Assembly (NCBI RefSeq): GCF_046105845.1
Contig: NZ_CP151004.1
Source of the DNA: Escherichia coli
Lineage (GTDB): Bacteria > Pseudomonadota > Gammaproteobacteria > Enterobacterales > Enterobacteriaceae
Length of the DNA: 64,000 nucleotides
Direction: 5' to 3' (one strand)
Part shown: positions 1,924 through 37,430 of the stretch, one piece after another
How the letters are laid out: the number at the start of each line of letters is the position of its first letter
Position numbering within the stretch: the stretch's first letter is position 1
Position numbers and translations under genes: made by a program
The notes under the pieces: model-generated
Told to the model about the DNA's origin: nothing
Databases searched by the model: none
What the model saw: the letters and a program-made list of their open reading frames with translations, nothing else

Positions 1924-4614
<2,691 letters not shown>

Positions 4615-10725: not shown

Positions 10726-11424
10726 ATGAAAATCGGCATCATTGGTGCAATGGAAGAAGAAGTTACGCTGCTGCGTGACAAAATCGAAAACCGTCAAACT
10801 ATCAGTCTCGGCGGTTGCGAAATCTATACCGGCCAACTGAATGGAACCGAGGTTGCGCTTCTGAAATCGGGCATCGGTAAAGTCGCTGCGGCGCTGGGTG
10901 CCACTCTGCTGTTGGAACACTGCAAGCCAGATGTGATTATTAACACCGGTTCTGCCGGTGGCCTGGCACCAACGCTGAAAGTGGGCGATATCGTTGTCTC
11001 GGACGAAGCACGTTATCACGACGCGGATGTCACGGCATTTGGTTATGAATACGGCCAGTTACCAGGCTGTCCGGCAGGCTTTAAAGCTGACGATAAACTG
11101 ATCGCTGCCGCTGAGGCCTGCATTGCCGAACTGAATCTTAACGCTGTACGTGGCCTGATTGTTAGCGGCGACGCTTTCATCAACGGTTCTGTTGGTCTGG
11201 CGAAAATCCGCCACAACTTCCCACAGGCCATTGCTGTAGAGATGGAAGCGACGGCAATCGCCCATGTCTGCCACAATTTCAACGTCCCGTTTGTTGTCGT
11301 ACGCGCCATCTCCGACGTGGCCGATCAACAGTCTCATCTTAGCTTCGATGAGTTCCTGGCTGTTGCCGCTAAACAGTCCAGCCTGATGGTTGAGTCACTG
11401 GTGCAGAAACTGGCACATGGCTAA
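10726..11424 (+). CDS. mtn: 5'-methylthioadenosine/S-adenosylhomocysteine nucleosidase
   Basis: 232-aa [56 protein letters not shown]... Confidence 0.97.
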
Positions 11425-12217
11425 GTCACTGTTCAGGGCGCTGGTCGCCCTGTCTTTTCTTGCGCCACTGTGGCTCAACGCCGCGCCGCGCGTCATCACG
11501 CTTTCTCCCGCCAACACTGAACTTGCCTTTGCCGCCGGGATCACGCCGGTTGGGGTCAGCAGCTATTCCGACTATCCTCCACAAGCGCAAAAGATTGAGC
11601 AGGTTTCCACCTGGCAGGGGATGAATCTGGAACGCATTGTGGCGCTGAAACCCGATCTGGTGATTGCCTGGCGTGGAGGTAATGCCGAGCGGCAGGTTGA
11701 CCAGCTGGCTTCGCTGGGAATAAAAGTGATGTGGGTCGATGCGACAAGCATTGAACAAATTGCCAATGCGTTACGTCAACTGGCCCCCTGGAGTCCGCAA
11801 CCTGACAAGGCCGAACAAGCCGCGCAATCCCTGCTGGACCAGTACGCGCAATTGAAAGCGCAATATGCTGATAAACCTAAAAAACGTGTTTTTCTGCAAT
11901 TCGGCATTAATCCGCCATTTACCAGTGGAAAAGAGTCGATTCAAAACCAGGTACTCGAAGTTTGTGGCGGAGAAAACATCTTTAAAGACAGCCGGGTTCC
12001 CTGGCCGCAAGTTAGCCGCGAACAGGTGTTAGCACGCTCGCCACAGGCGATTGTCATTACAGGCGGACCGGTCCAAATTCCTAAAATCAAACAATACTGG
12101 GGTGAACAGCTCAAAATTCCCGTTATTCCTCTCACGAGTGACTGGTTTGAACGTGCAAGCCCACGTATTATCCTCGCTGCACAACAGCTCTGTAATGCGC
12201 TTTCACAGGTAGATTAG
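11417..12217 (+). CDS. btuF: Vitamin B12 periplasmic binding protein
   Basis: ORF 11390-12217; start taken at [24 protein letters not shown] (signal peptide, 266 aa); overlaps mtn 3' end by 8 bp. Confidence 0.9.
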
Positions 12218-12887: not shown

Positions 12888-12914
12888 ATGTGCCGGATAG
12901 TTTATCCGGCACAT
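12888..12914. terminator. Hairpin between convergent yadS and erpA
   Basis: Perfect 12-bp stem atgtgccggata / tatccggcacat with 3-nt loop. Confidence 0.4.
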
Positions 12915-12924
12915 GAACAACAGA

Positions 12925-13269
12925 TTAGATACTAAAGGAAGAACCGCAACCGCAGGTGCTTTTCGCGTTCGGGTTGGTCACGATGAAACGAGAACCTTCC
13001 AGACCTTCGGTATAGTCAACGGAACCGCCGACCAGATATTGCAGGCTCATCGGGTCAACCACCAGGCCAACGCCCTGTTTTTCGATGGTCATATCGCCTT
13101 CGTTCACCTGATCATCAAAGGTGAAACCATACTGGAAGCCGCTGCAACCGCCACCGGTGATATACACGCGTAATTTCAGATTCGGGTTATCTTCGTCAGC
13201 GATCAGGCTTTTAACTTTGTTGGCTGCTGCGTCGGTAAACTCCAGCGGCAGTGCTACGTCATCACTCAT
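12925..13269 (-). CDS. erpA: Iron-sulfur cluster insertion protein ErpA (A-type carrier)
   Basis: ORF 12925-13302 (-); start taken at [22 protein letters not shown] (114 aa); C-terminal CGCGSSF motif. Confidence 0.92.
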
Positions 13270-13350
13270 ATTTTGCTCCAAACGACATCGGCAATTGGGC
13301 AAATTCTAACCCAATAATAATCGCCATTATCTAATACCCTGGTATTTCGT

Positions 13351-14790
<1,440 letters not shown>

Positions 14791-14996
14791 TCATACAAAT
14801 AAGATGACGGCATTTTACTCGCACGTTCCATGAAAATCCTTTGCAAAGCGTAATGTTTCAAATGCACAAAACTTTTATACTCTAAGAAATCAGGATTGCA
14901 CCAGTACAAGCAGCCTGATGTTTGACGAGTATTTAACTTGTTATGAATAACATAGAATAGCAGCCATTCACTTTTTCTACGAATCAGGAACCCTCC

Positions 14997-16311: not shown

Positions 16312-18294
16312 TTAACGGCTCTGCTTTCTCAACAAATAGATAAAATATGGCGCGCCGATAAAGGTCGACAGCAGCCCCGCTGGGATCTGGAATGGAAACA
16401 GCACCATCCGCCCACACCAGTCAGCGAACACCAGCAGTAAACCACCCACCAGCGCCGAAATTACGATGTGTGGCATCGTCCGTCGAAAGCCCATCATCCG
16501 CGCAATATGCGGTGCCATTAAACCAACAAAACTCAACGGTCCAATAGTCATCGTCGCGGTCGCCGTCAGGCAAGCCGCTAATAGCAGCAGCGCAATTCGC
16601 GTCGGCGTCAGCGCCATTCCTACGGCTCGTGCGGTATCACCGCCCAGCGGTAAAATGGTCAGCCAGCGGCGGCACAGCGGGGTAATCGCCAGCAAAATTA
16701 CCATCGCAATTCCCGTGCGCCAGACCTGCGCATCGGTCGCGTTGTAGGTCGAACCGGAAATCCAAGTCAGAACTTGCGCCATTCGCGGGTCACCACTTGC
16801 CTGCAACATCATCAAAAGCATGGTGAACGCGGTACTTAACGCCATCCCCGCCAGTAGCATGCGGTGTGGGGAAAATCCACCGCGGCCGGCGGCGATCATA
16901 ATGATCAACAGCGTCACCGCCGCCCCGAGACTACCCGCAGGTAACAGCCAGCCAAAGGCATTACCCGGCACCAGAAACAGCATCAACACCACGCCAAACG
17001 CCGCGCCGGAGCTAATCCCCAGCACTTCCGGGCTTGCCATCGGGTTGCCGGTCAGCCGCTGAATAATACAGCCCGCCACCGCCAGCATGACTCCCGCAAA
17101 CAGCGCCGCCATAATTCGCGGCCAGCGCCAGGGCATTAAATCCTCGAGCAACGCCCCGCTCGCCCACGTCCAGCCGTGCGCATCACGGCCAAACGACAGC
17201 GCCACCACCACTGCCATCAACAGCAGCACGCCGCCCGCGAGGGCAAACGCCAGCACATGTTGGCGTTCAGCAGCGACACGATCGTTCACCTTCATATCCG
17301 GCGCGCTAATGCTGCGTAAACGCGGCAGCAGCCAAAGTAGCAGCGGCGCACCTATCAACGCAGTGACCGAACCGGTAGAAACTTCCATCCACACGCGAGT
17401 CAGCCAGAGGATGATTTGATCAGAAAGCCACAGAATTAACGCCCCAATCAGCGACGCCAGCATCAATCGTGGCAACAAACGCCGCGCCCCCAGCATTTTT
17501 GCCAGCAGTGGCGCGAACAACCCGATAAAGCCGATAATCCCCACCGCATTCACCAGCAGCGCACTGATGACTATCGCCAGCGTCAGCGCCGCCAGACGCG
17601 CGAGCGACAAGGCCAGCCCGAGATTGCGCGCCACGCCATCATCAAGCCCCATCAGGGTTAACGGGCGAAGTAGCAATAACGTCAGCATCACGCCGCCCAG
17701 CAGCTGCGGCCATAAACGCTCAACGCCGCCCCAGTCGGTTTGCGTCAGCGTTCCGGTGCTCCACAGAAACATGCTTTGCAGTTGGTCATGATGGAAGATA
17801 ACCAGTAACTGATTGATTGCACCGCAATAAAGGCTCACTACCAGCCCCGCGAGAATCAGCGTTACCGGCGACAGCCGTTTCCCCCACGCGACGCCAAAGA
17901 CAATTAAGCCAACCACACAAGCCCCTGCCAGTGCAGCAAACTGGCTCGCCATAGCACCTGGGATCGCCCAGAGCGTGGTGACGGTAATCCCCAGTTGCGC
18001 GCCTGTAGCAACGCCCAGCGTCGTCGGTTCCGCCAGCGGGTTACGCAGCACTTGCTGAAACAGCACGCCCACCAGCCCCAGGCCCGCGCCCACCAGCAGC
18101 GAAATCGCCAGACGCGGCAGCAAGCTGTAGTGAAAAATCATCTGCTCGATGACATCGATATCCGGCGACCAGGCAGCCTGCGCCCACTGGCTACGCGGCA
18201 GCGCTTGCGAAAAGTTCATCCAGGTGAGCGCCGCTGCGACAATCACCAGCAGCGCCAGCAATAACGCCGGGAAAAGCGCAATTCGTTTACTCAC
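16312..18294 (-). CDS. fhuB: Ferric hydroxamate ABC transporter permease
   Basis: 660-aa ORF MSKRIALFPALLLALLVIVAAALTWMNFSQALPRSQWAQAAWSPDIDVIEQ...; duplicated FecCD-type permease halves. Confidence 0.96.
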   Translation of the reverse strand: MSKRIALFPALLLALLVIVAAALTWMNFSQALPRSQWAQAAWSPDIDVIEQMIFHYSLLPRLAISLLVGAGLGLVGVLFQQVLRNPLAEPTTLGVATGAQLGITVTTLWAIPGAMASQFAALAGACVVGLIVFGVAWGKRLSPVTLILAGLVVSLYCGAINQLLVIFHHDQLQSMFLWSTGTLTQTDWGGVERLWPQLLGGVMLTLLLLRPLTLMGLDDGVARNLGLALSLARLAALTLAIVISALLVNAVGIIGFIGLFAPLLAKMLGARRLLPRLMLASLIGALILWLSDQIILWLTRVWMEVSTGSVTALIGAPLLLWLLPRLRSISAPDMKVNDRVAAERQHVLAFALAGGVLLLMAVVVALSFGRDAHGWTWASGALLEDLMPWRWPRIMAALFAGVMLAVAGCIIQRLTGNPMASPEVLGISSGAAFGVVLMLFLVPGNAFGWLLPAGSLGAAVTLLIIMIAAGRGGFSPHRMLLAGMALSTAFTMLLMMLQASGDPRMAQVLTWISGSTYNATDAQVWRTGIAMVILLAITPLCRRWLTILPLGGDTARAVGMALTPTRIALLLLAACLTATATMTIGPLSFVGLMAPHIARMMGFRRTMPHIVISALVGGLLLVFADWCGRMVLFPFQIPAGLLSTFIGAPYFIYLLRKQSR

Positions 18295-19181
18295 GCTTTA
18301 CCTCCGATGGCGTTATCCAGAATACGCACAAAGTGCATTGCCGAAAGCGTCGCGCCATAGAACCAGACCGCCGGAACGCGCTGAAAGCGTCCGGCGCGGA
18401 CAAACGGCATGGCCTGCCACAGCGGCGTCGCCATTAGGGCGTCCATGTCTTTGCTGTTGTCGTGATCAAAACAGAGCACATCAACGTCTTTATACGCCGC
18501 CAGACGATCGATACTGACGGCGGTACTGCCCCAGAAGTTGGTTTCCCCTTGCCAGGCATTTGGGATGCCGTACTCATCAAGAATTTCCTGGAACAAGCTG
18601 TTTGGACCGAAGACCAGCATATGGCGCGGATCGATAAGTGTCGTCAGTAATAACGGACGCGCACCACGCTTCACAAAGCGGGGTTTCATGCTGCGGATAA
18701 AGTCTTCATAGTGCGCTAAATGCGTTTCTGCTGCGCTTTGCAGGTTAAGTAAATCTGCCATTTCCGTCAGTGATTTACGCGCCATCGCCAGCGGCTGTTT
18801 GCCGTCGCTGAAGTTAAATCCGCGCCCCGGCGCAATACGTGCCAGCATTTCTGGTGAAGGGCCATATCCTGCCGACCAGACCATAAACGACGGTTTCATT
18901 TCGGTCAGCAGTTCAAGGTTAGGTTCTGTACGCAAACCAACGTCAATCACTGAGTCCGGCAATGGTGGTTCGCTGACCCACAGGCGATAGTTGATGGTGT
19001 CCGCCACGCCGTAAGGCACGATGCCGAGCGCCAGCAGTAATTCCACCGGCAACCACTCCAGCGCCACAATACGATTGGGATCAATAGCCGCCGCGTGGGC
19101 GGTATTCATCTGCCATAACAACGGAGAAAGCGCCATCGCCGTTAACAGTCGGCGGCGCGAAATAAGAGGTAAGCCGCTCAT
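18291..19181 (-). CDS. fhuD: Ferric hydroxamate periplasmic binding protein
   Basis: ORF 18291-19184 (-); start taken at MSGLPLISRRRLLTAMALSPLLWQMNTAHA (296 aa); 4-bp overlap with fhuB start. Confidence 0.93.
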   Translation of the reverse strand: MSGLPLISRRRLLTAMALSPLLWQMNTAHAAAIDPNRIVALEWLPVELLLALGIVPYGVADTINYRLWVSEPPLPDSVIDVGLRTEPNLELLTEMKPSFMVWSAGYGPSPEMLARIAPGRGFNFSDGKQPLAMARKSLTEMADLLNLQSAAETHLAHYEDFIRSMKPRFVKRGARPLLLTTLIDPRHMLVFGPNSLFQEILDEYGIPNAWQGETNFWGSTAVSIDRLAAYKDVDVLCFDHDNSKDMDALMATPLWQAMPFVRAGRFQRVPAVWFYGATLSAMHFVRILDNAIGGKA

Positions 19182-19978
19182 CAATAAACAAAACTCACAG
19201 GTGCAGCACCCGCCGGATGCGGCAGAATACCCATCGGGATGCCATAAATCATTTCGAGGGTTTCGCCGCGCATAATTTCCGCAGGCGTTCCCTGAGCAAT
19301 CATTTCACCGCCGCGCAGGGCGACCAGATAATCACAGTAGCGCGCCGCCATATTAATATCGTGCAGCACGGCAATGACCGTCAGACCACGTTCCTGACTT
19401 AAACGATGCACCAGCGCCAGCACGTCAACCTGGTGGGCGATATCCAGCGCCGAGGTCGGTTCGTCGAGCAACAGACAACGGCTATCCTGCGCCACCAGCA
19501 TAGCGATCCACGCCCGCTGACGTTCGCCGCCAGAGAGACTATCGACCAGCCGATGCGCCAGCGGTTTTAAGCCAACCAGCGAAATCGCCTCTTCGACCTT
19601 TTCGCGATCTGCCGCACCAAAGCGCCCCAGTGCGCCATGCCACGGGTAACGACCAATCGCCACCAGTTCACGCACGGTCATCCCTTCTGCCGGAGGAAGC
19701 TGCTGCGGCAAATAAGCCACTTTGCGGGCGAACGCTTTGCTGCTCCAGCTTTCCAGCGGCTGGGCATCAAGAAGAATTTCGCCTTCCGACGGTGGCTGAT
19801 GACGGCCAAGCATTTTGAGCAGAGTGGATTTACCAGAACCGTTGTGACCAATCAGACCAGTCACTTTCCCGGCAGGAAAGGTTAACGACAGCGGATGCAA
19901 AAGCGTGCGCCCTGGCACACGAAAGGAGATATTACGCAGTGCAAAAGTGGTATCGGAATGATTCGTGTATTCCTGCAT
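19181..19978 (-). CDS. fhuC: Ferric hydroxamate ABC transporter ATP-binding protein
   Basis: ORF 19181-20020 (-); start taken at MQEYTNHSDTTFALRNISFRVPGRTLL (265 aa); Walker A GHNGSGKST; 1-bp overlap with fhuD. Confidence 0.93.
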   Translation of the reverse strand: MQEYTNHSDTTFALRNISFRVPGRTLLHPLSLTFPAGKVTGLIGHNGSGKSTLLKMLGRHQPPSEGEILLDAQPLESWSSKAFARKVAYLPQQLPPAEGMTVRELVAIGRYPWHGALGRFGAADREKVEEAISLVGLKPLAHRLVDSLSGGERQRAWIAMLVAQDSRCLLLDEPTSALDIAHQVDVLALVHRLSQERGLTVIAVLHDINMAARYCDYLVALRGGEMIAQGTPAEIMRGETLEMIYGIPMGILPHPAGAAPVSFVY

Positions 19979-20028: not shown

Positions 20029-22272
20029 TTAGAAGCGGAAGGTTGCGGTTGCAACGACCTGACGTTCTGCGCCCCAGAAGCAGCCATAGGTGTTAAAGCA
20101 GCTGGCGACGTATTCACGATCGAACAGGTTGTTGACATGCAGCGCCACGTTGGAGCCAGCCATGCCGACTCGCGCCAGATCATAACGCACTAACGCATCC
20201 ACGACCGTATAACTTCCCACTTTAAAGGAGTTAGCCGGATCACCATAGCTGGAGCCAGTATAACGACCACCGGTGCCCAGCGTCAGACCTGAAAGCGGAC
20301 CGTCAAAGAAGGTATAGTCAGCCCACAGCGAAGCCATGTGTTTTGGCACCTGTGCAGGCGTATTGCCTTTATAGGTAGTGTCGGTGGTGTATTCCGCATC
20401 GGTGTAAGTATAAGAACCGACTACGTTAACACTCGCCGACAGCGCCGCTTTCGCTTCGATTTCTACGCCACGAGCGCGGATCTCGCCACCTTCAACCGAG
20501 AAGAAGGAACCCTCAGGGTCCGCCATCAGGTTGTTGGTTTTAGTGAGATTATACACGGCACCAGTAACCACAATTGGACGATCTTCCGGTACATATTTCA
20601 CGCCGACTTCATACTGCTTACCTTTAGACGGTGCGAAAATATTACCATCCTTCCCAACTTGCGAAGAAGGTTCAAACGATTCGCTATAGCTGAAGTAAGG
20701 TGTTACACCATTATCAAACAGGTAGTTAACACCACCACGCCAGGTAAACTGTTTGTCATCACGTTTATCGGTCGTTCCCGCTACGCGGTTAAGAGATTCT
20801 TGATCTGCCCAGTCGTAACGACCGCCCAGGGTGACCAGCACTTTATCCCACTGCGCCTGATCCTGAACATAAACGCCCGTTTGCTTCTGCTTATTCAGAA
20901 TGCGGTACGGACCGGAGTTATCCGGGTCTTTCGCATTGAAGTCGAAATCGGTATTCACCGGATTGTACAGATCGAGCAGCGGTACGGAGTCGTCGTAACC
21001 AAACCAGGCGTTGATGTCATTACGCATACGCATAAAGTCGACACCGGTCAGCAGGGTGTGGTCGATATCGCCAGTGGCAAACTTGCTCTGCAACTGGGTA
21101 TCAACGGAGAAGTTTTGCAGCTTCTCATCATCAACGACGTATTTACGTGCCAGGTAGTGACCTTTATCGGCTGGCGCTAAAGCGGCACACTGTTTGCTGT
21201 AAGCATTCGCCGGATCGGAGCAGACGCCGTAACCATAAACGCTGTTTTGCGAGGTTTTGTTTTCAGCAAAGCGCAGGTTCTGACGCACAGTAAAGGTGTC
21301 GTTAAATTCGTGATCGAAGCTATAGCCCACCATCTTCTCATTACGAGAATAGGTGTTGTTCTTCGCCCCTTCGTTAAAATCTGTCGGCAGACGCTTACCG
21401 TTCGGCAGCGGCTCAACGGTACCCTCTTTCGGCAACCAGCCGTAATAACCGGTTTCCGGCTCGTTCTGGAAGTAAGAAAGGAAGGTGAAATTGGTTTTAT
21501 CATCCGGACGCCAGGTGAACGCCGGTGCAATAGCATAACGCTGCTCTTCTGAGCCTTTCTGCTGGGCATTGGCAGAACGCGCAAGACCGGTCAGGCGATA
21601 AGAGTAAACACCGTCATCATCCAACGCATCGCTAAAGTCAAAACCAGTCTGGAACAGGCTGTCAGTACCGGCTTTAAACTGAACTTCTTTCAGCGGTTCA
21701 GTAGTCGGACGCTTGCTGACCATATTCAACAGACCGCCAGGACTGCTTTTACCGTAAAGCACGGAAACCGGGCCACGCATAATTTCAGCGCGTTCCAGCA
21801 TATACGGGTCAATGACCGCATCGTTATAGAAGTTGCCCTGCAACTTCAGGCCATTCAGATAGTTATTCTGGCTTTGGCCTTCTGCCGCAAAGCCGCGAAT
21901 GATCAGGTGGTCATAGGTGTTGGATGCGCCACGCGTACCAACAGAGACACCCGGCGTGTAGCTAAGCGCTTCTTTTACCGACTTCGGCTGATGCAGCGCC
22001 ATCTCTTCGGCGGTCACAACAGAAATAGACTGTGGCACTTTTTGAATCGGCGTATCGGTTTTAGTGCCGGTAGCTGACTGTCGCGCCGCAATAGTTGCAG
22101 CCGGCCCCCATGCGCTTTCTTGCGGCGCAGGTGCAGCGGTAACGGTGATAGTGTCTTCTTTCGGTTCAACCGCTGCCTGTGCATAAACAGACATGCCGCT
22201 AACCGCTGTGGCTACTACAACTGCGATTTTACGCAGTGAATGTTTTGGCTGAGCAGTTTTGGAACGCGCCAT
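20029..22272 (-). CDS. fhuA: Ferrichrome outer membrane transporter (TonB-dependent receptor)
   Basis: 747-aa ORF MARSKTAQPKHSLRKIAVVVATAVSGMSVYAQAAVEPKEDTITV...; terminal ...ATATFRF. Confidence 0.97.
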   Translation of the reverse strand: MARSKTAQPKHSLRKIAVVVATAVSGMSVYAQAAVEPKEDTITVTAAPAPQESAWGPAATIAARQSATGTKTDTPIQKVPQSISVVTAEEMALHQPKSVKEALSYTPGVSVGTRGASNTYDHLIIRGFAAEGQSQNNYLNGLKLQGNFYNDAVIDPYMLERAEIMRGPVSVLYGKSSPGGLLNMVSKRPTTEPLKEVQFKAGTDSLFQTGFDFSDALDDDGVYSYRLTGLARSANAQQKGSEEQRYAIAPAFTWRPDDKTNFTFLSYFQNEPETGYYGWLPKEGTVEPLPNGKRLPTDFNEGAKNNTYSRNEKMVGYSFDHEFNDTFTVRQNLRFAENKTSQNSVYGYGVCSDPANAYSKQCAALAPADKGHYLARKYVVDDEKLQNFSVDTQLQSKFATGDIDHTLLTGVDFMRMRNDINAWFGYDDSVPLLDLYNPVNTDFDFNAKDPDNSGPYRILNKQKQTGVYVQDQAQWDKVLVTLGGRYDWADQESLNRVAGTTDKRDDKQFTWRGGVNYLFDNGVTPYFSYSESFEPSSQVGKDGNIFAPSKGKQYEVGVKYVPEDRPIVVTGAVYNLTKTNNLMADPEGSFFSVEGGEIRARGVEIEAKAALSASVNVVGSYTYTDAEYTTDTTYKGNTPAQVPKHMASLWADYTFFDGPLSGLTLGTGGRYTGSSYGDPANSFKVGSYTVVDALVRYDLARVGMAGSNVALHVNNLFDREYVASCFNTYGCFWGAERQVVATATFRF

Positions 22273-30524: not shown

Positions 30525-31922
30525 ATTTTTACCCGAGTCGCTAATTTTTGCCGCAAGGTGCTAAGCCGCGAGGAAAGCGAGGCTGAACAGGCAGTCGCCC
30601 GTCCACAGGTGACGGTGATCCCGCGTGAGCAGCATGCTATTTCCCGCAAAGATATCAGTGAAAATGCCCTGAAGGTAATGTACAGGCTCAATAAAGCGGG
30701 ATACGAAGCCTGGCTGGTTGGCGGCGGCGTGCGCGACCTGTTACTTGGCAAAAAGCCGAAAGATTTTGACGTAACCACTAACGCCACGCCTGAACAGGTA
30801 CGTAAACTGTTCCGTAACTGCCGCCTGGTGGGTCGCCGTTTCCGTCTGGCTCATGTTATGTTTGGCCCGGAGATTATCGAAGTTGCGACCTTCCGTGGAC
30901 ATCACGAAGGTAACGTCAGCGACCGCACGACCTCCCAACGCGGGCAAAACGGTATGTTGCTGCGCGACAACATTTTCGGCTCCATCGAAGAAGACGCCCA
31001 GCGCCGCGATTTCACTATCAACAGCCTGTATTACAGCGTGGCAGATTTTACCGTCCGTGATTACGTTGGCGGTATGAAGGATCTGAAGGACGGCGTTATC
31101 CGTCTGATTGGTAACCCGGAAACGCGCTACCGTGAAGATCCGGTACGGATGCTGCGCGCGGTACGTTTTGCCGCCAAATTGGGTATGCGCATCAGCCCGG
31201 AAACCGCAGAACCGATCCCTCGCCTCGCTACCCTGCTGAACGATATCCCACCGGCACGCCTGTTTGAAGAATCGCTTAAACTGCTACAAGCGGGCTACGG
31301 TTACGAAACCTATAAGCTGCTGTGTGAATATCATCTGTTCCAGCCGCTGTTCCCGACCATTACCCGCTACTTCACGGAAAATGGCGACAGCCCGATGGAG
31401 CGGATCATTGAACAGGTGCTGAAGAATACCGATACGCGTATCCATAACGATATGCGCGTGAACCCGGCGTTCCTGTTTGCCGCCATGTTCTGGTACCCAC
31501 TGCTGGAGACGGCACAGAAGATCGCCCAGGAAAGCGGCCTGACCTATCACGACGCTTTCGCGCTGGCGATGAACGACGTGCTGGACGAAGCCTGCCGTTC
31601 ACTGGCGATCCCGAAACGTCTGACCACGCTAACCCGCGATATCTGGCAGTTGCAGTTGCGTATGTCCCGACGTCAGGGTAAACGCGCCTGGAAACTGCTG
31701 GAGCATCCTAAGTTCCGTGCGGCTTATGACTTGTTGGCCTTGCGAGCTGAAGTTGAACGTAACGCTGAACTGCAACGTCTGGTGAAATGGTGGGGTGAGT
31801 TTCAGGTTTCCGCGCCACCAGATCAAAAAGGGATGCTCAACGAGCTGGATGAAGAGCCGTCACCGCGTCGCCGTACTCGTCGTCCACGCAAACGCGCACC
31901 GCGTCGTGAGGGTACCGCATGA
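30525..31922 (+). CDS. pcnB: Poly(A) polymerase I
   Basis: ORF 30504-31922 (TTG-initiated in track); pcnB is known to initiate at AUU, placed here at ATT 30525-30527 giving [22 protein letters not shown]... (465 codons); nucleotidyltransferase motif [10 protein letters not shown]. Confidence 0.85.
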
Positions 31923-32398
31923 CAGTGGCGTATATTGCCATAGGCAGCAATCTGGCCTCTCCGCTGGAGCAGGTCAATGCTGCCCTAAAAGCATTAGGCG
32001 ATATCCCTGAAAGCAGCATTCTTGCCGTTTCTTCGTTTTACCGCACCCCACCGCTGGGGCCGCAAGATCAACCCGATTACTTAAACGCAGCCGTGGCGCT
32101 GGAAACCTCTCTTGCACCTGAAGAGCTACTCAATCACACACAGCGTATCGAATTGCAGCAAGGTCGCGTCCGTAAAGCGGAACGCTGGGGACCGCGTACG
32201 CTGGATCTCGACATCATGCTATTTGGTAATGAAGTAATAAATACCGAACGCCTGACCGTTCCGCACTACGATATGAAGAATCGTGGATTTATGCTGTGGC
32301 CGCTGTTTGAAATCGCGCCGGAGTTGGTGTTTCCTGATGGGGAGACGTTGCGTCAAATCTTACATACAAGAGCATTTGACAAATTAAACAAATGGTAA
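31919..32398 (+). CDS. folK: 2-amino-4-hydroxy-6-hydroxymethyldihydropteridine pyrophosphokinase
   Basis: 159-aa [62 protein letters not shown]...; 4-bp overlap with pcnB stop. Confidence 0.96.
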
Positions 32399-33457: not shown

Positions 33458-34198
33458 ATGTTTTTTAATACAAAACATACTGTAGCATTATGCTTTGCAA
33501 CCTGTTTAGCTTTTAGCTCTTCAGCTATTGCAGATATCGTCATTTCAGGTACACGCGTTATTTACACAAGCGATCAAAAAAGTGTCAATGTACGTCTGGA
33601 AAATAAAGGCAATAACCCATTGCTGGTCCAGAGTTGGTTAGATACCGGAGATGATAACGCCGAACCTGGCAGTATCAATGTCCCATTTACGGCGACTCCC
33701 CCTGTTTCACGTATTGACGGCAAACGCGGTCAAACAATCAAGCTGATGTATACCGGCAGTTCTGCTTTACCCAAAGATCGGGAAAGTGTGTTTTGGTTCA
33801 ATGTCCTCGAAGTTCCACCAAAACCCGACGCGGAAAAAATGGCTAACCAAAGCATGTTGCAACTGGCCTTCCGTACTCGCATCAAACTGTTTTATCGTCC
33901 GGAAGGACTCACCGGAATACCGTCCGATGCTCCGGCTGCACTGAAGTGGTCGTGGACAACATCCGGCGGCAAAGTGGCGCTTCGTGTCGTTAATCCTACC
34001 CCCTTCTACGTCTCTTTCAGCAGTGGTGACGTTGTCGCCAGCGGAAAGCGTTATCCGTTAGACGTCAAAATGATCGCGCCACGCAGTGAAGATGCCATCA
34101 CAGTTAATGGGATCAGTAGCAAAGTGAGTTCTGCACAAGTTCACTTCTTTGCCATTAATGATTTTGGCGGCGCAATTGAAGGCAATGCCACTCTGTAA
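33458..34198 (+). CDS. ecpD: Periplasmic fimbrial chaperone (PapD-like)
   Basis: 246-aa ORF MFFNTKHTVALCFATCLAFSSSAIADIVISGTRVIYTSDQKSVNVRLENKGNNPLLVQSW...; also named yadV. Confidence 0.93.
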   Translation: MFFNTKHTVALCFATCLAFSSSAIADIVISGTRVIYTSDQKSVNVRLENKGNNPLLVQSWLDTGDDNAEPGSINVPFTATPPVSRIDGKRGQTIKLMYTGSSALPKDRESVFWFNVLEVPPKPDAEKMANQSMLQLAFRTRIKLFYRPEGLTGIPSDAPAALKWSWTTSGGKVALRVVNPTPFYVSFSSGDVVASGKRYPLDVKMIAPRSEDAITVNGISSKVSSAQVHFFAINDFGGAIEGNATL

Positions 34199-34232
34199 AG
34201 TCTTCAGGATCACACGCAGCAGGAAGCAAAAC

Positions 34233-36833
34233 GTGAACAAAAAAACAACTACAAATTATCACTATCCCCTTACACATATCGCCACGTTTTGCGCACTGCT
34301 TTACAGCAGTAGTGCTTTAAGCGCCGAGCACGTTGAGTATGACAATACCTTCCTGATGGGTCGTGATGCTTCAAATATTGATCTTAGTCGCTATAGCGAG
34401 GGTAACCCAACATTACCAGGCCTTTACGACGTCAGCGTTTATATCAACGACCAGCCCGTCACCAACCAGAGCATTGCCTTTGTTACGGTTGAGGGTAAGA
34501 AAAACGCTCAGGCTTGTCTCACCCTGAAGAACTTATTGCAGTTTCATATCAATCAACCCGATATCAATGTTGCTAATGCCGTGCTGCTTGCAAGGGACAA
34601 CGAACTCGGGGATTGCCTCAACCTGGCGGAACTCATCCCCCAGACGTCGATTCGTTATGATGTCAACGATCAGCGCCTGGACATCTATGTTCCCCAGGCA
34701 TGGGTAATGAAAAATTACCAAAACTATGTTGATCCTTCCTTGTGGGAAAACGGTATCAACGCTGCAATGTTGTCTTACAACGTCAACGCATATCACAGTG
34801 AAAGCCCCGACAGGAAAAATGACAGTGTTTATGCTGCTTTTAATGGCGGTATGAATTTAGGAGCATGGCGGTTACGCGCTACCGGTAACTACAGTTGGAG
34901 GAATGATTCAGACAGTAACTATGACTTTCAGAATCGCTACCTCCAGCGCGATCTCGCATCCTTACGCTCGCAGTTAATTGTCGGTGAGTCATATACCACG
35001 GGTGAAACCTTCGATTCAGTCAGCATTCGGGGAGTTCGCTTATATAGCGACAGTCGCATGTTACCCCCTGCGTTAGCCAGTTTTGCGCCAATTATTCATG
35101 GTGTTGCGAACACTAACGCCAAGGTCACTATTACCCAGGGCAGTTATAAGATCTATGAAACCACCGTACCGCCAGGTGCGTTTGTCATCGATGATCTTAG
35201 CCCATCGGGTTACGGCAGCGATCTTATCGTCACTATTGAAGAAGCGGATGGTTCAAAGCGTACTTTCTCACAACCATTTTCATCAGTTGTACAGATGTTA
35301 CGGCCAGGCGTCGGGCGCTGGGATATCAGCGGTGGTCAGATCATAAAAGACGATATTCAAGACGAGCCCAATCTTTTTCAGGCCAGTTATTACTACGGTT
35401 TAAACAACTATCTGACCGGTTATACCGGGATCCAACTTACTGACAATCATTACACTGCCGGATTACTGGGTCTGGGCCTGAATACCTCTTTAGGTGCTTT
35501 TTCATTCGATATCACCCATTCAAATGTCAGCATTCCGGATGATAAAACCTATCAGGGGCAAAGCTATCGCCTCTCCTGGAACAAATTATTCGAAAATACC
35601 AATACATCGCTAAATATCGCGGCTTATCGCTATTCAACGCAGAATTACCTTGGCCTTAACGACGCACTGACTTTAATCGACGAAGTAAAACATCCGGAAC
35701 AGGACCTCGAACCGCAAACCATGCGTAACTACTCTCGCATGAAAAATCAGGTGACGGTCAGCATTAGCCAACCGCTGAAATTTGAGAAACAGGATTACGG
35801 TTCATTCTATCTCACCGGGGATTGGTCAGATTACTGGGCTTCCGGGCAAAATCGCAGCAATTACTCTATTGGTTACAGTAATAGCGCTTCCTGGGGGAGT
35901 TACAGCATCAGTGCACAACGTTCATGGAATGAGGATGGTGAAACGGATGATAGCATCTACCTTAGTTTCACCATTCCAATTGAAAAATTATTAGGCACAA
36001 GCCATCGCGATTCCGGTTTTCAGAGTATTGATACTCAGTTAAATAGTGATTTTAAAGGCAATAATCAGCTCAACATCAGCAGCAGTGGCTTTAGCGACGC
36101 AAATCGCGTCAGTTACAGCGTAAACACCGGCTATACAATGATGAAAGCCAGTGACGATTTAAGTTACATCGGTGGTTATGCCAGTTACGAATCGCCCTGG
36201 GGAACGCTTGCAGGTTCCGTTTCCGCAAGTAGCGATAACAGTCGTCAATTCTCGCTTAATACTGACGGTGGATTCGTGCTGCACAGCGGCGGCCTGACAT
36301 TCAGTAACGATAGCTTTAGCGACTCCGACACACTTGCCGTTGTACAAGCCCCTGGAGCAAAAGGTGCGCGCATTAACTATGGCAACAGTACAGTAGACCG
36401 CTGGGGATACGGCGTGACCAGTGCCCTCTCGCCATATCATGAAAACCGTATCGCTCTGGACATTAGCGGAATCGAAAATGATGTAGAAATGAAATCTACC
36501 AGTGCAATTGCCGTCCCTCGTCAGGGCTCTGTTGTCTTCGCCGATTTTGAAACCGTCCAGGGACAATCGGCAATCATGAATATTAAACGTACTGACGGTA
36601 AAAATATTCCATTCGCGGCGGATATCTTTGATGAACAAAATAACATGATTGGTAACGTCGGCCAGGGCGGACAAGCTTTTGTTCGAGGCATCGAACAGCA
36701 AGGTAATATCCGCATCAACTGGGTTGAAGAGGGTAAACCTGTCGCATGTATTGCCCATTATAAGCAAACAGCGGATCAACAAAAATTAACACAAACTATT
36801 ATTCTGAATGGAATTAGTTGTCAGATACAGTAA
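34233..36833 (+). CDS. htrE: Fimbrial outer membrane usher
   Basis: ORF 34149-36833 overlaps ecpD; start placed at GTG 34233 after AGGAAG ribosome-binding site, giving (M)NKKTTTNYHYPLTHIATFCALLYSSSALSAEHVEYDNTFLMG... (866 aa). Confidence 0.88.
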   Translation: MNKKTTTNYHYPLTHIATFCALLYSSSALSAEHVEYDNTFLMGRDASNIDLSRYSEGNPTLPGLYDVSVYINDQPVTNQSIAFVTVEGKKNAQACLTLKNLLQFHINQPDINVANAVLLARDNELGDCLNLAELIPQTSIRYDVNDQRLDIYVPQAWVMKNYQNYVDPSLWENGINAAMLSYNVNAYHSESPDRKNDSVYAAFNGGMNLGAWRLRATGNYSWRNDSDSNYDFQNRYLQRDLASLRSQLIVGESYTTGETFDSVSIRGVRLYSDSRMLPPALASFAPIIHGVANTNAKVTITQGSYKIYETTVPPGAFVIDDLSPSGYGSDLIVTIEEADGSKRTFSQPFSSVVQMLRPGVGRWDISGGQIIKDDIQDEPNLFQASYYYGLNNYLTGYTGIQLTDNHYTAGLLGLGLNTSLGAFSFDITHSNVSIPDDKTYQGQSYRLSWNKLFENTNTSLNIAAYRYSTQNYLGLNDALTLIDEVKHPEQDLEPQTMRNYSRMKNQVTVSISQPLKFEKQDYGSFYLTGDWSDYWASGQNRSNYSIGYSNSASWGSYSISAQRSWNEDGETDDSIYLSFTIPIEKLLGTSHRDSGFQSIDTQLNSDFKGNNQLNISSSGFSDANRVSYSVNTGYTMMKASDDLSYIGGYASYESPWGTLAGSVSASSDNSRQFSLNTDGGFVLHSGGLTFSNDSFSDSDTLAVVQAPGAKGARINYGNSTVDRWGYGVTSALSPYHENRIALDISGIENDVEMKSTSAIAVPRQGSVVFADFETVQGQSAIMNIKRTDGKNIPFAADIFDEQNNMIGNVGQGGQAFVRGIEQQGNIRINWVEEGKPVACIAHYKQTADQQKLTQTIILNGISCQIQ

Positions 36834-36849
36834 CAACAAGGAATCTCAC

Positions 36850-37416
36850 ATGATAAAAATAGCACCCTATAAATTGGCGATACTGACGGGAATAATGTTA
36901 TCTCCTTGTGTATTAGCTACGGATATTAATGTCGAATTTACGGCAACCGTAAAAGCAACGACATGTAATATTAAGATAACCGGTAATAATGTCACCGAAG
37001 ACGGAAATGACAGTTATACGTTAACATTACCCAATATGGGTCTGGATCAAATAGTAAATAAAACCACCAGGGCCCAGGCTGACTTTACGATGGTAGCCAG
37101 TGGTTGCAGTGCAGGTATCAGCCATATTGATACTACATTGTCAGGTAATGGGTCCCGAACCTTTGATAGACTTGTTATACCGCTGTCTTCAGACACCACA
37201 TCAACCACCAGTTATATCGGTATGGGGTTCAAAAAACGTAATGCTGGTGATGAAACATTTTTAAAACCAAACAGCGCAGAAAAAATACGCTGGAGTGCAA
37301 CAGAAATTAGTACCACAGGTCTGGAAATGACCGTGGCACTACGTGAAACGAGCGCAGGTGAGGGGATACCCGGAGACTTTCGTGCTCAGGCAATTTTCAA
37401 TTTCACCTATGAATAA
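36850..37416 (+). CDS. yadM: Fimbrial minor subunit
   Basis: ORF 36808-37416; start taken at MIKIAPYKLAILTGIMLSPCVLA (signal peptide, 188 aa). Confidence 0.85.
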   Translation: MIKIAPYKLAILTGIMLSPCVLATDINVEFTATVKATTCNIKITGNNVTEDGNDSYTLTLPNMGLDQIVNKTTRAQADFTMVASGCSAGISHIDTTLSGNGSRTFDRLVIPLSSDTTSTTSYIGMGFKKRNAGDETFLKPNSAEKIRWSATEISTTGLEMTVALRETSAGEGIPGDFRAQAIFNFTYE

Positions 37417-37430
37417 CAAGGATGACAATG

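Follow-up and report, generated by a model that had tools for sequence, protein, structure and literature searches.

The window analysed in the current study is a 64,000-nt segment of the E. coli chromosome running from rpsB to aceF, onto which the RefSeq (PGAP) gene calls of E. coli GMF054 were mapped gene by gene. All of the transferred CDSs were intact. Five pairs of intact, co-directional neighbouring genes within it share bases at their stop/start junctions: mtnN (mtn) and btuF at a spacing of -8, fhuC and fhuD at -1, and fhuD/fhuB, pcnB/folK and yadG/yadH at -4 (Table 1). Overlaps of these sizes had been proposed in the first-pass annotation, and all five were confirmed by direct reading of the sequence, by the RefSeq calls, and by the K-12 gene coordinates in a published expression table, which give identical overlaps of 8, 1, 4, 4 and 4 nt. 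The 3-kb segment around the mtn/btuF junction has matches of at least 95% identity in 5,424 of the 5,426 complete genomes of E. coli.

Short overlaps at these three spacings are textbook traits of bacterial operons, and the -4 (NTGA), -1 (TRATG) and -8 (NTGNNTRA) classes are known to be enriched across prokaryotes. The five overlaps are routine, already annotated junctions in the compact E. coli operons mtn-btuF-yadS, fhuACDB, pcnB-folK and yadGH. Because they are real, conserved and previously annotated, the finding as such is ordinary; the overlaps are present in every E. coli annotation, and are useful only as a sanity check of the gene calls.

Table 1. Features of the window. mRNA and ribosome-density ratios are downstream/upstream median RPKM, computed from RNA-seq and ribosome-profiling tables published for K-12 (36 samples).
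Feature	Position	Strand	mRNA ratio	Ribosome-density ratio	Remarks
mtnN	10726-11424	+			5'-methylthioadenosine/S-adenosylhomocysteine nucleosidase; 232 aa; intact; 99.1% DNA identity to GMF054 mtnN
btuF	11417-12217	+			periplasmic vitamin B12-binding protein; 266 aa; signal peptide of 22 residues
mtnN/btuF overlap	11417-11424	+	0.14	0.06	8 nt, ATGGCTAA; btuF ATG 11417-11419, mtnN TAA 11422-11424
hairpin and U-tract	11434-11461	+			btuF signal-peptide codons 6-15; begins 10 nt after the mtnN stop
yadS/erpA hairpin	12888-12914				between convergent yadS (+) and erpA (-)
yadW/erpA overlap	13262-13269	-			8 nt, ATGAGTGA; small protein YadW in PGAP; 100% identical in the window
yadW	13262-13327	-			tiny annotated protein gene; 21 codons
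yadX	14784-14831	-			tiny annotated protein gene; 15 codons
fhuB	16312-18294	-			GTG start
fhuD	18291-19181	-
fhuD/fhuB overlap	18291-18294	-	2.0	0.97	4 nt, GTGA
fhuC	19181-19978	-
fhuC/fhuD overlap	19181	-	0.77	0.31	1 nt; TGATG at junction 19179-19183
fhuA	20029-22272	-
pcnB	30525-31922	+
folK	31919-32398	+
pcnB/folK overlap	31919-31922	+	0.18	0.39	4 nt, ATGA
yad fimbrial genes	33458-38659	+
yadV/htrE overlap	34185-34198	+			14 nt; yadV, fimbrial chaperone; htrE, usher; holds under PGAP start 34185
fimbrial-subunit gene, partial match	38378-38595
yadH	45489-46259	-
yadG	46256-47182	-
yadG/yadH overlap	46256-46259	-	1.26	1.03	4 nt, ATGA (tandem ATGATG)

The start codons on which the overlaps depend were examined by scanning all in-frame ATG, GTG and TTG codons between the preceding in-frame stop and a point 45 codons past each annotated start. 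For btuF, the only upstream alternative was a TTG at 11390, which would give a 35-nt overlap and has no SD sequence; this TTG is missing in many species, supporting the annotated start. Downstream of 11417, no in-frame ATG, GTG or TTG was found within the 45 codons scanned, which cover the whole signal peptide, and the mature BtuF chains in the PDB start at residue 22 or 23. Moreover, an ATG or GTG occupies the btuF start position in 49 of the 50 species compared below.

It is highly improbable that some of the annotated starts are wrong and that the true ones lie downstream, so that the overlaps vanish. An in-frame GTG at 31925, two codons past the annotated folK start, could be cited in favour of this, but the solved E. 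coli HPPK (FolK) chains are 158 aa long and match residues 2-159, and thus begin at Thr2. Each of the downstream fhuD starts would cut away the positively charged SRRR of the signal peptide and lacks an SD sequence, as do the downstream fhuB starts; GTG 18294 alone has one (GGAGG, -10.8 kcal/mol). Use of the second ATG of yadH (46256) would still leave a 1-nt overlap with yadG. The start of the htrE usher gene is ambiguous because several in-frame starts exist, and GTG 34233 would replace its 14-nt overlap with yadV by a 34-nt gap. Among the five pairs, no plausible alternative start removed the overlap. The choices made inside longer ORFs in the first-pass annotation agree with the annotation, with the N-termini in the PDB and with the conservation of the btuF start, and the notion of wrong starts is already largely refuted.

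Two more overlaps were missed in the first-pass annotation, namely yadW/erpA, which belongs to the same class as mtn/btuF, and yadV/htrE. The small genes yadW and yadX were likewise unlisted, the latter lying 11 nt upstream of clcA. Co-directional neighbours overlap in 7 of the 36 pairs in the window, a frequency that is normal for E. coli. A spacing of exactly -8, -4 or -1 was found in six of these 36 pairs against 0.9 expected (binomial P ~2e-4) under a crude uniform model over -20 to +100 nt.

The conservation of the mtn/btuF junction was followed by scanning for Mtn in one genome per species, which yielded 80 loci; btuF lies directly after mtn in 50 Enterobacteriaceae species. The two genes overlap in 49 of the 50, by 8 nt in 46 species and by 11 nt in three. 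In the 8-nt class (NTGNNTRR geometry), btuF begins with GTG in 31 species and with ATG in 15, and the geometry survives although base sequence, start codon and encoded residues differ among the species. Outside the Enterobacteriaceae, the junction is TAATG (-1) in Yersinia, a 1-nt gap in Serratia oryzae and a 71-nt gap in Providencia. The comparison shows a close apposition of mtn and btuF that has been maintained. It was also observed that the choice between ATG and GTG for btuF is the same base change as that between His and Arg at Mtn residue 231 (window 11418-11420; loci L004-L061). Because the btuF start and this residue use the same nucleotide, each gene constrains the other at the shared base.

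In addition to the overlaps themselves, the first-pass annotation had proposed that they indicate translational coupling. In the proposed mechanism, ribosomes ending the upstream gene would re-initiate at the downstream start, or would open it, and this would matter most for btuF and fhuD, neither of which has an SD sequence (-2.8 and -2.2 kcal/mol, respectively). As both lack an SD, re-initiation would be the simplest route to their translation. The other three downstream genes have SD sequences of their own (AGGAG, -8.5 kcal/mol, for yadH and GAGGG, -6.2 kcal/mol, for folK, besides that of fhuB), which could serve either coupling or independent initiation. Judged from these sequence features, coupling is plausible at the five junctions and is probably most needed for btuF and fhuD. 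A mechanism in which coupling unfolds RNA at the btuF start was considered and rejected, as the 100 nt around this start fold no better than shuffled sequences (z -0.47) and the start codon lies outside any stable helix in the centroid structure; this analysis covered the mtn/btuF junction.

An overlap alone does not show translational coupling. Huber et al. 2019 found four of five overlapping E. coli pairs tested to be coupled, while bioBF was initiated de novo, and Burkhardt et al. 2017 found relative translation to be equally variable in overlapping and non-overlapping pairs (the tables of the latter study contain mtn, and btuF, fhuD, folK and yadH are absent from them). Coupling has been found to be most efficient between -4 and +3 nt and to weaken as the overlap grows past -4. 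In addition, coupling tends to be less efficient where there is structure just 3' of the stop codon of the first gene.

Ribosome profiling at the junctions, which the first-pass annotation had suggested as a check, is available for K-12 in published form, and gave a mixed outcome (Table 1). The K-12 strain differs from that of the window by one synonymous base in the 61 nt around the mtn/btuF junction. Translation was close to 1:1 for yadG/yadH and fhuD/fhuB, and these two pairs behave as tightly co-translated. The mtn/btuF pair does not, showing a drop in mRNA of about 7-fold and a step-down in ribosome density of 16-fold, and the density ratios at fhuC/fhuD and pcnB/folK were likewise well below one. 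The first-pass reading as a whole is supported in part, but its claim that an overlap by itself indicates coupling is not supported: the missing SD sequences of btuF and fhuD speak for coupling, while the equal variability of overlapping pairs, the de novo initiation of bioBF and ratios as low as 0.06 speak against reading coupling from the overlap itself.

These data also bear on whether the overlaps arose neutrally, through genome compaction and the ease with which NTGA and TRATG motifs form, with the downstream genes initiating independently. The published counterexamples cited above are in keeping with such neutrality, as are the SD sequences of fhuB, folK and yadH and the low density ratios, between 0.06 and 0.39, of three of the five pairs. 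Against it stand the absence of SD sequences from btuF and fhuD, the coupling demonstrated by Huber et al. for most of the overlapping pairs in their experiments, the nearly equal translation of two of the pairs described here, and the retention of the exact 8-nt mtn/btuF geometry across species while its bases, start codon and residues vary. On balance, a purely neutral origin with independent initiation is considered rather unlikely.

The five pairs resemble the known coupled pairs trpB/trpA, hyfHI, astDB and menDH in their co-directionality within operons, in overlaps at the enriched spacings and, for three of the five downstream genes, in an SD inside the upstream gene. They differ from these in that btuF and fhuD have no SD, in that their translation ratios run from 1.03 down to 0.06, and in that coupling is here predicted from sequence. 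Both btuF and fhuD encode binding proteins of ABC importers; both have SD-less starts within overlaps, and both show a ribosome density below that of the upstream gene. The two differ in setting, since fhuD sits in fhuACDB whereas btuF is apart from btuCED and is joined to mtn, an unrelated metabolic gene.

Support of the overlaps for operon structure, also claimed in the first-pass annotation, was similarly divided. The overlaps leave no space between the paired genes for a promoter or a terminator, and a consensus scan of the + strand inside mtn found no sigma-70-like site that would drive btuF separately. According to PMC11837498, where the work is cited, insertion of a resistance gene into Salmonella pfs (= mtn) blocked B12 uptake, and a polar effect of this kind fits co-transcription of mtn and btuF. 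On the other side, a mapped 3' end lies inside btuF and the mRNA level falls across the junction, as described below for the former and in Table 1 for the latter.

The feature that probably accounts for this fall is a hairpin followed by a U-tract in the btuF signal-peptide codons. A pattern scan identified a 7-bp stem (CAGGGCG/CGCCCTG) with the loop CTGGT at 11434-11452, followed by TCTTTTCTT at 11453-11461. Seven of the nine nt past the stem are T, and the fold energy is -15.3 kcal/mol, so that the element has the form of an intrinsic terminator, i.e. a GC-rich hairpin directly before a U-tract. Adams et al. 2021 (supplementary file 1) list Term-seq 3' ends at K-12 positions 178423 and 178421 with a Rho score of 1.37 ('No'), and these map to window positions 11456 and 11458, 4 and 6 nt past the stem and within the U-tract. 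The element is identical in K-12, and in that strain it has Rho-independent 3' ends in vivo. The end is classed as 'primary' for mtn and as 'internal' for btuF, 39 nt inside the latter. There are three btuF entries, one for each growth-condition tab, of which two (178423 and 178421) were inspected. The intrinsic terminator score given by the same authors is 2.32, below their cut-off of 3.0.

The hairpin at 11434-11461 is most likely a leaky Rho-independent terminator. With leaky Rho-independent attenuators known from operons it shares the GC-rich 7-bp stem, the 5-nt loop and the U-rich tail, together with 3' ends in the U-tract that are insensitive to Rho inhibition and a step-down in mRNA. 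It differs from them in lying inside an overlapping downstream CDS, not between genes, and in a score below the published cut-off. The main text of Adams et al. 2021 has no mention of the mtn/btuF 3' end, a full-text search on btuF, mtn and terminator returned nothing relevant, and the TERMITe supplements have no mtn or btuF entry; in the literature searched, the element appears only in the supplementary table. An Rfam search at the junction gave noise only. No comparable hairpin was found at fhuC/fhuD, fhuD/fhuB, pcnB/folK or yadG/yadH, and the data of Adams et al. list no Term-seq 3' ends at these four junctions.

The degree of termination is estimated differently by different data. DirectRNA-seq counts over 800 nt on each flank of the 3' end were similar (106, 75, 67 and 65), and because of this similarity read-through would be much higher than the RNA-seq ratio implied.

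Conservation of the hairpin was examined in the same 50 species. A GC-rich stem of 6-10 bp recurs across them, mostly at +8 to +12 nt from the mtn stop; a stem of 6 bp or more is present in 94% of the species. At least ten sequence variants of the hairpin occur, and the peptides that they encode vary, with RALVAL, RGITAL, GRLTGAL, RSLCAL and QGIFAL among them. When each species' own peptide was recoded synonymously, the native sequences had a mean best-hairpin score of 19.3 against 11.3 for the recodings, with p<0.05 in 60% of the species; the score is register-free, the statistic was picked after the hairpin had been seen, and the 50 species are phylogenetically related, which matters for these statistics. 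The hairpin-specific score replaced a test on whole-region folding energy, in which the difference from synonymous recodings was modest (mean z -0.89, with 84% of the species below zero). Fixed-column covariation was weak: the paired fraction of cells was 76.6%, compared with 40-55.5% when the partners were slid, and only two pairs changed on both sides, and RNAalifold found no consensus structure across the species, since the register of the stem shifts between genera. The Arg7 codon in the stem is AGG, a codon that makes up 0.6% of the Arg codons in 20 genes of the window, and among the 44 species with Arg at this position, 26 have AGG. In Providencia, where the two genes are separated, a canonical terminator (A-tract, hairpin and T-tract) lies directly past the mtn stop.

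The main rival to the terminator gives the stem only a stabilising role at a processed 3' end, or explains it in part by GC-rich Ala, Leu and Arg codons. The hairpin at 11434-11452 would in that case be a by-product of the encoded peptide or would shield a processed mtn mRNA from degradation at its 3' end, and the lower level of btuF RNA would come from faster decay of the distal transcript. The terminator score below the cut-off is in line with this, and synonymous recodings retain folding energies of -10 to -18 kcal/mol; several genera have poor U-tracts (e.g. CTCCTCCTC); the scan gave five terminator-like sites against 3.3 +/- 2.0 in shuffled sequences; and Adams et al. 2021 attributed most of the 3' ends that they could not explain to processing. 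By contrast, the hairpin-specific recoding favours the native codons, the stem keeps AGG despite its rarity, and the 3' ends lie 4 to 6 nt inside the U-tract, with an entry for the end under each of the three growth conditions. Furthermore, a canonical terminator occupies the equivalent site in Providencia, and none of the four other junctions has such a hairpin. Taken together, a stem without a terminator function is a possibility of some weight, but the less probable of the two.

With a leaky terminator at this site, most transcripts would end after mtn, and only those that read through would carry btuF-yadS. About one in seven transcripts would pass into btuF-yadS according to the RNA-seq ratio, and a further reduction of about 2-fold in translation efficiency would give the 16-fold step-down. 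The hairpin may also oppose coupling at btuF, since structure past the stop codon correlates negatively with coupling efficiency. Coupling, where it operates, would leave the ratio of the two proteins unset, and the leaky terminator in the btuF signal-peptide codons is most likely the dominant determinant of the relative expression of mtn and btuF. The need for BtuF is assumed to be low in copy number, and an abundant enzyme followed by a scarce binding protein fits the step-down.

The evidence as a whole makes it very likely that the five junctions are ordinary, annotated overlaps at -4, -1 and -8 in compact operons, for which coupling, and a leaky terminator at mtn/btuF, can be inferred. Given the hairpin and the 16-fold step-down in translation at mtn/btuF, an overlap is not evidence of stoichiometric co-expression. 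The added value is modest and lies in the coexistence of a stop/start overlap with a probable internal terminator at one junction; the hairpin would be an example of a transcript-end signal written in signal-peptide codons.

On a general estimate of the ribosome footprint, the hairpin would start close to the 3' limit of the mRNA covered by a ribosome parked on the mtn stop or the btuF start. For this reason the overlap and the hairpin could together form a translation-sensing attenuator within the signal-peptide codons. A ribosome that ends mtn, or re-initiates at btuF, close behind RNA polymerase would block closing of the stem and allow transcription of btuF-yadS, and an uncoupled polymerase would terminate after mtn. 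If this were true, the capacity for B12 uptake would be tied to translation of a gene of the methionine/SAM cycle. Such an attenuator is a speculative proposal and quite unlikely.

Two loci in the species comparison depart from the usual arrangement of the junction. Mangrovibacter yixingensis (L024, ~3185-3250) is the sole Enterobacteriaceae locus without an ATG or GTG at -8 or -11 (CAGGGTTAA); its nearest candidate btuF start is a TTG that would give a 14-nt overlap, and it is among the few loci without a hairpin past the mtn stop (folding energy -4.8 kcal/mol). In Buttiauxella agrestis (L042, ~3192-3235), an 18-nt tandem duplication (GTTAATAAGAAACT...) lies exactly at the mtn/btuF junction. 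The stop/start motif is doubled there, the N-terminus of BtuF is longer (VVNKKLLVNKKLW...), and the hairpin has moved to +29.

Some further features of the window were recorded. The mRNA level in K-12 drops 5-fold from pcnB to folK despite the 4-nt overlap, and no hairpin or mapped 3' end was found past the pcnB stop. The pcnB gene is annotated with a non-canonical ATT start at 30525, preceded at a distance of 21 nt by an in-frame TTG (30504); initiation of pcnB at AUU has been reported before.

The fhuA gene is 72% identical to its counterpart in GMF054, against 97-99% in the flanking genes. Among the yad fimbrial genes, those of the chaperone and usher are ~72% identical to GMF054, and the partial match in the fimbrial-subunit gene is ~67% identical. 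With other E. coli strains, however, the yad fimbrial region shares 98% identity. From these identities, the divergence of fhuA and yad is suggestive of mosaic or allelic replacement at surface-exposed loci.

A perfect 12-bp hairpin, ATGTGCCGGATAAACTATCCGGCACAT, followed on the - strand by a T-rich tail, is situated between yadS and erpA, which are convergent. A primary 3' end of erpA is listed for this sequence in the K-12 Term-seq data, and the element is probably a terminator common to both convergent genes.
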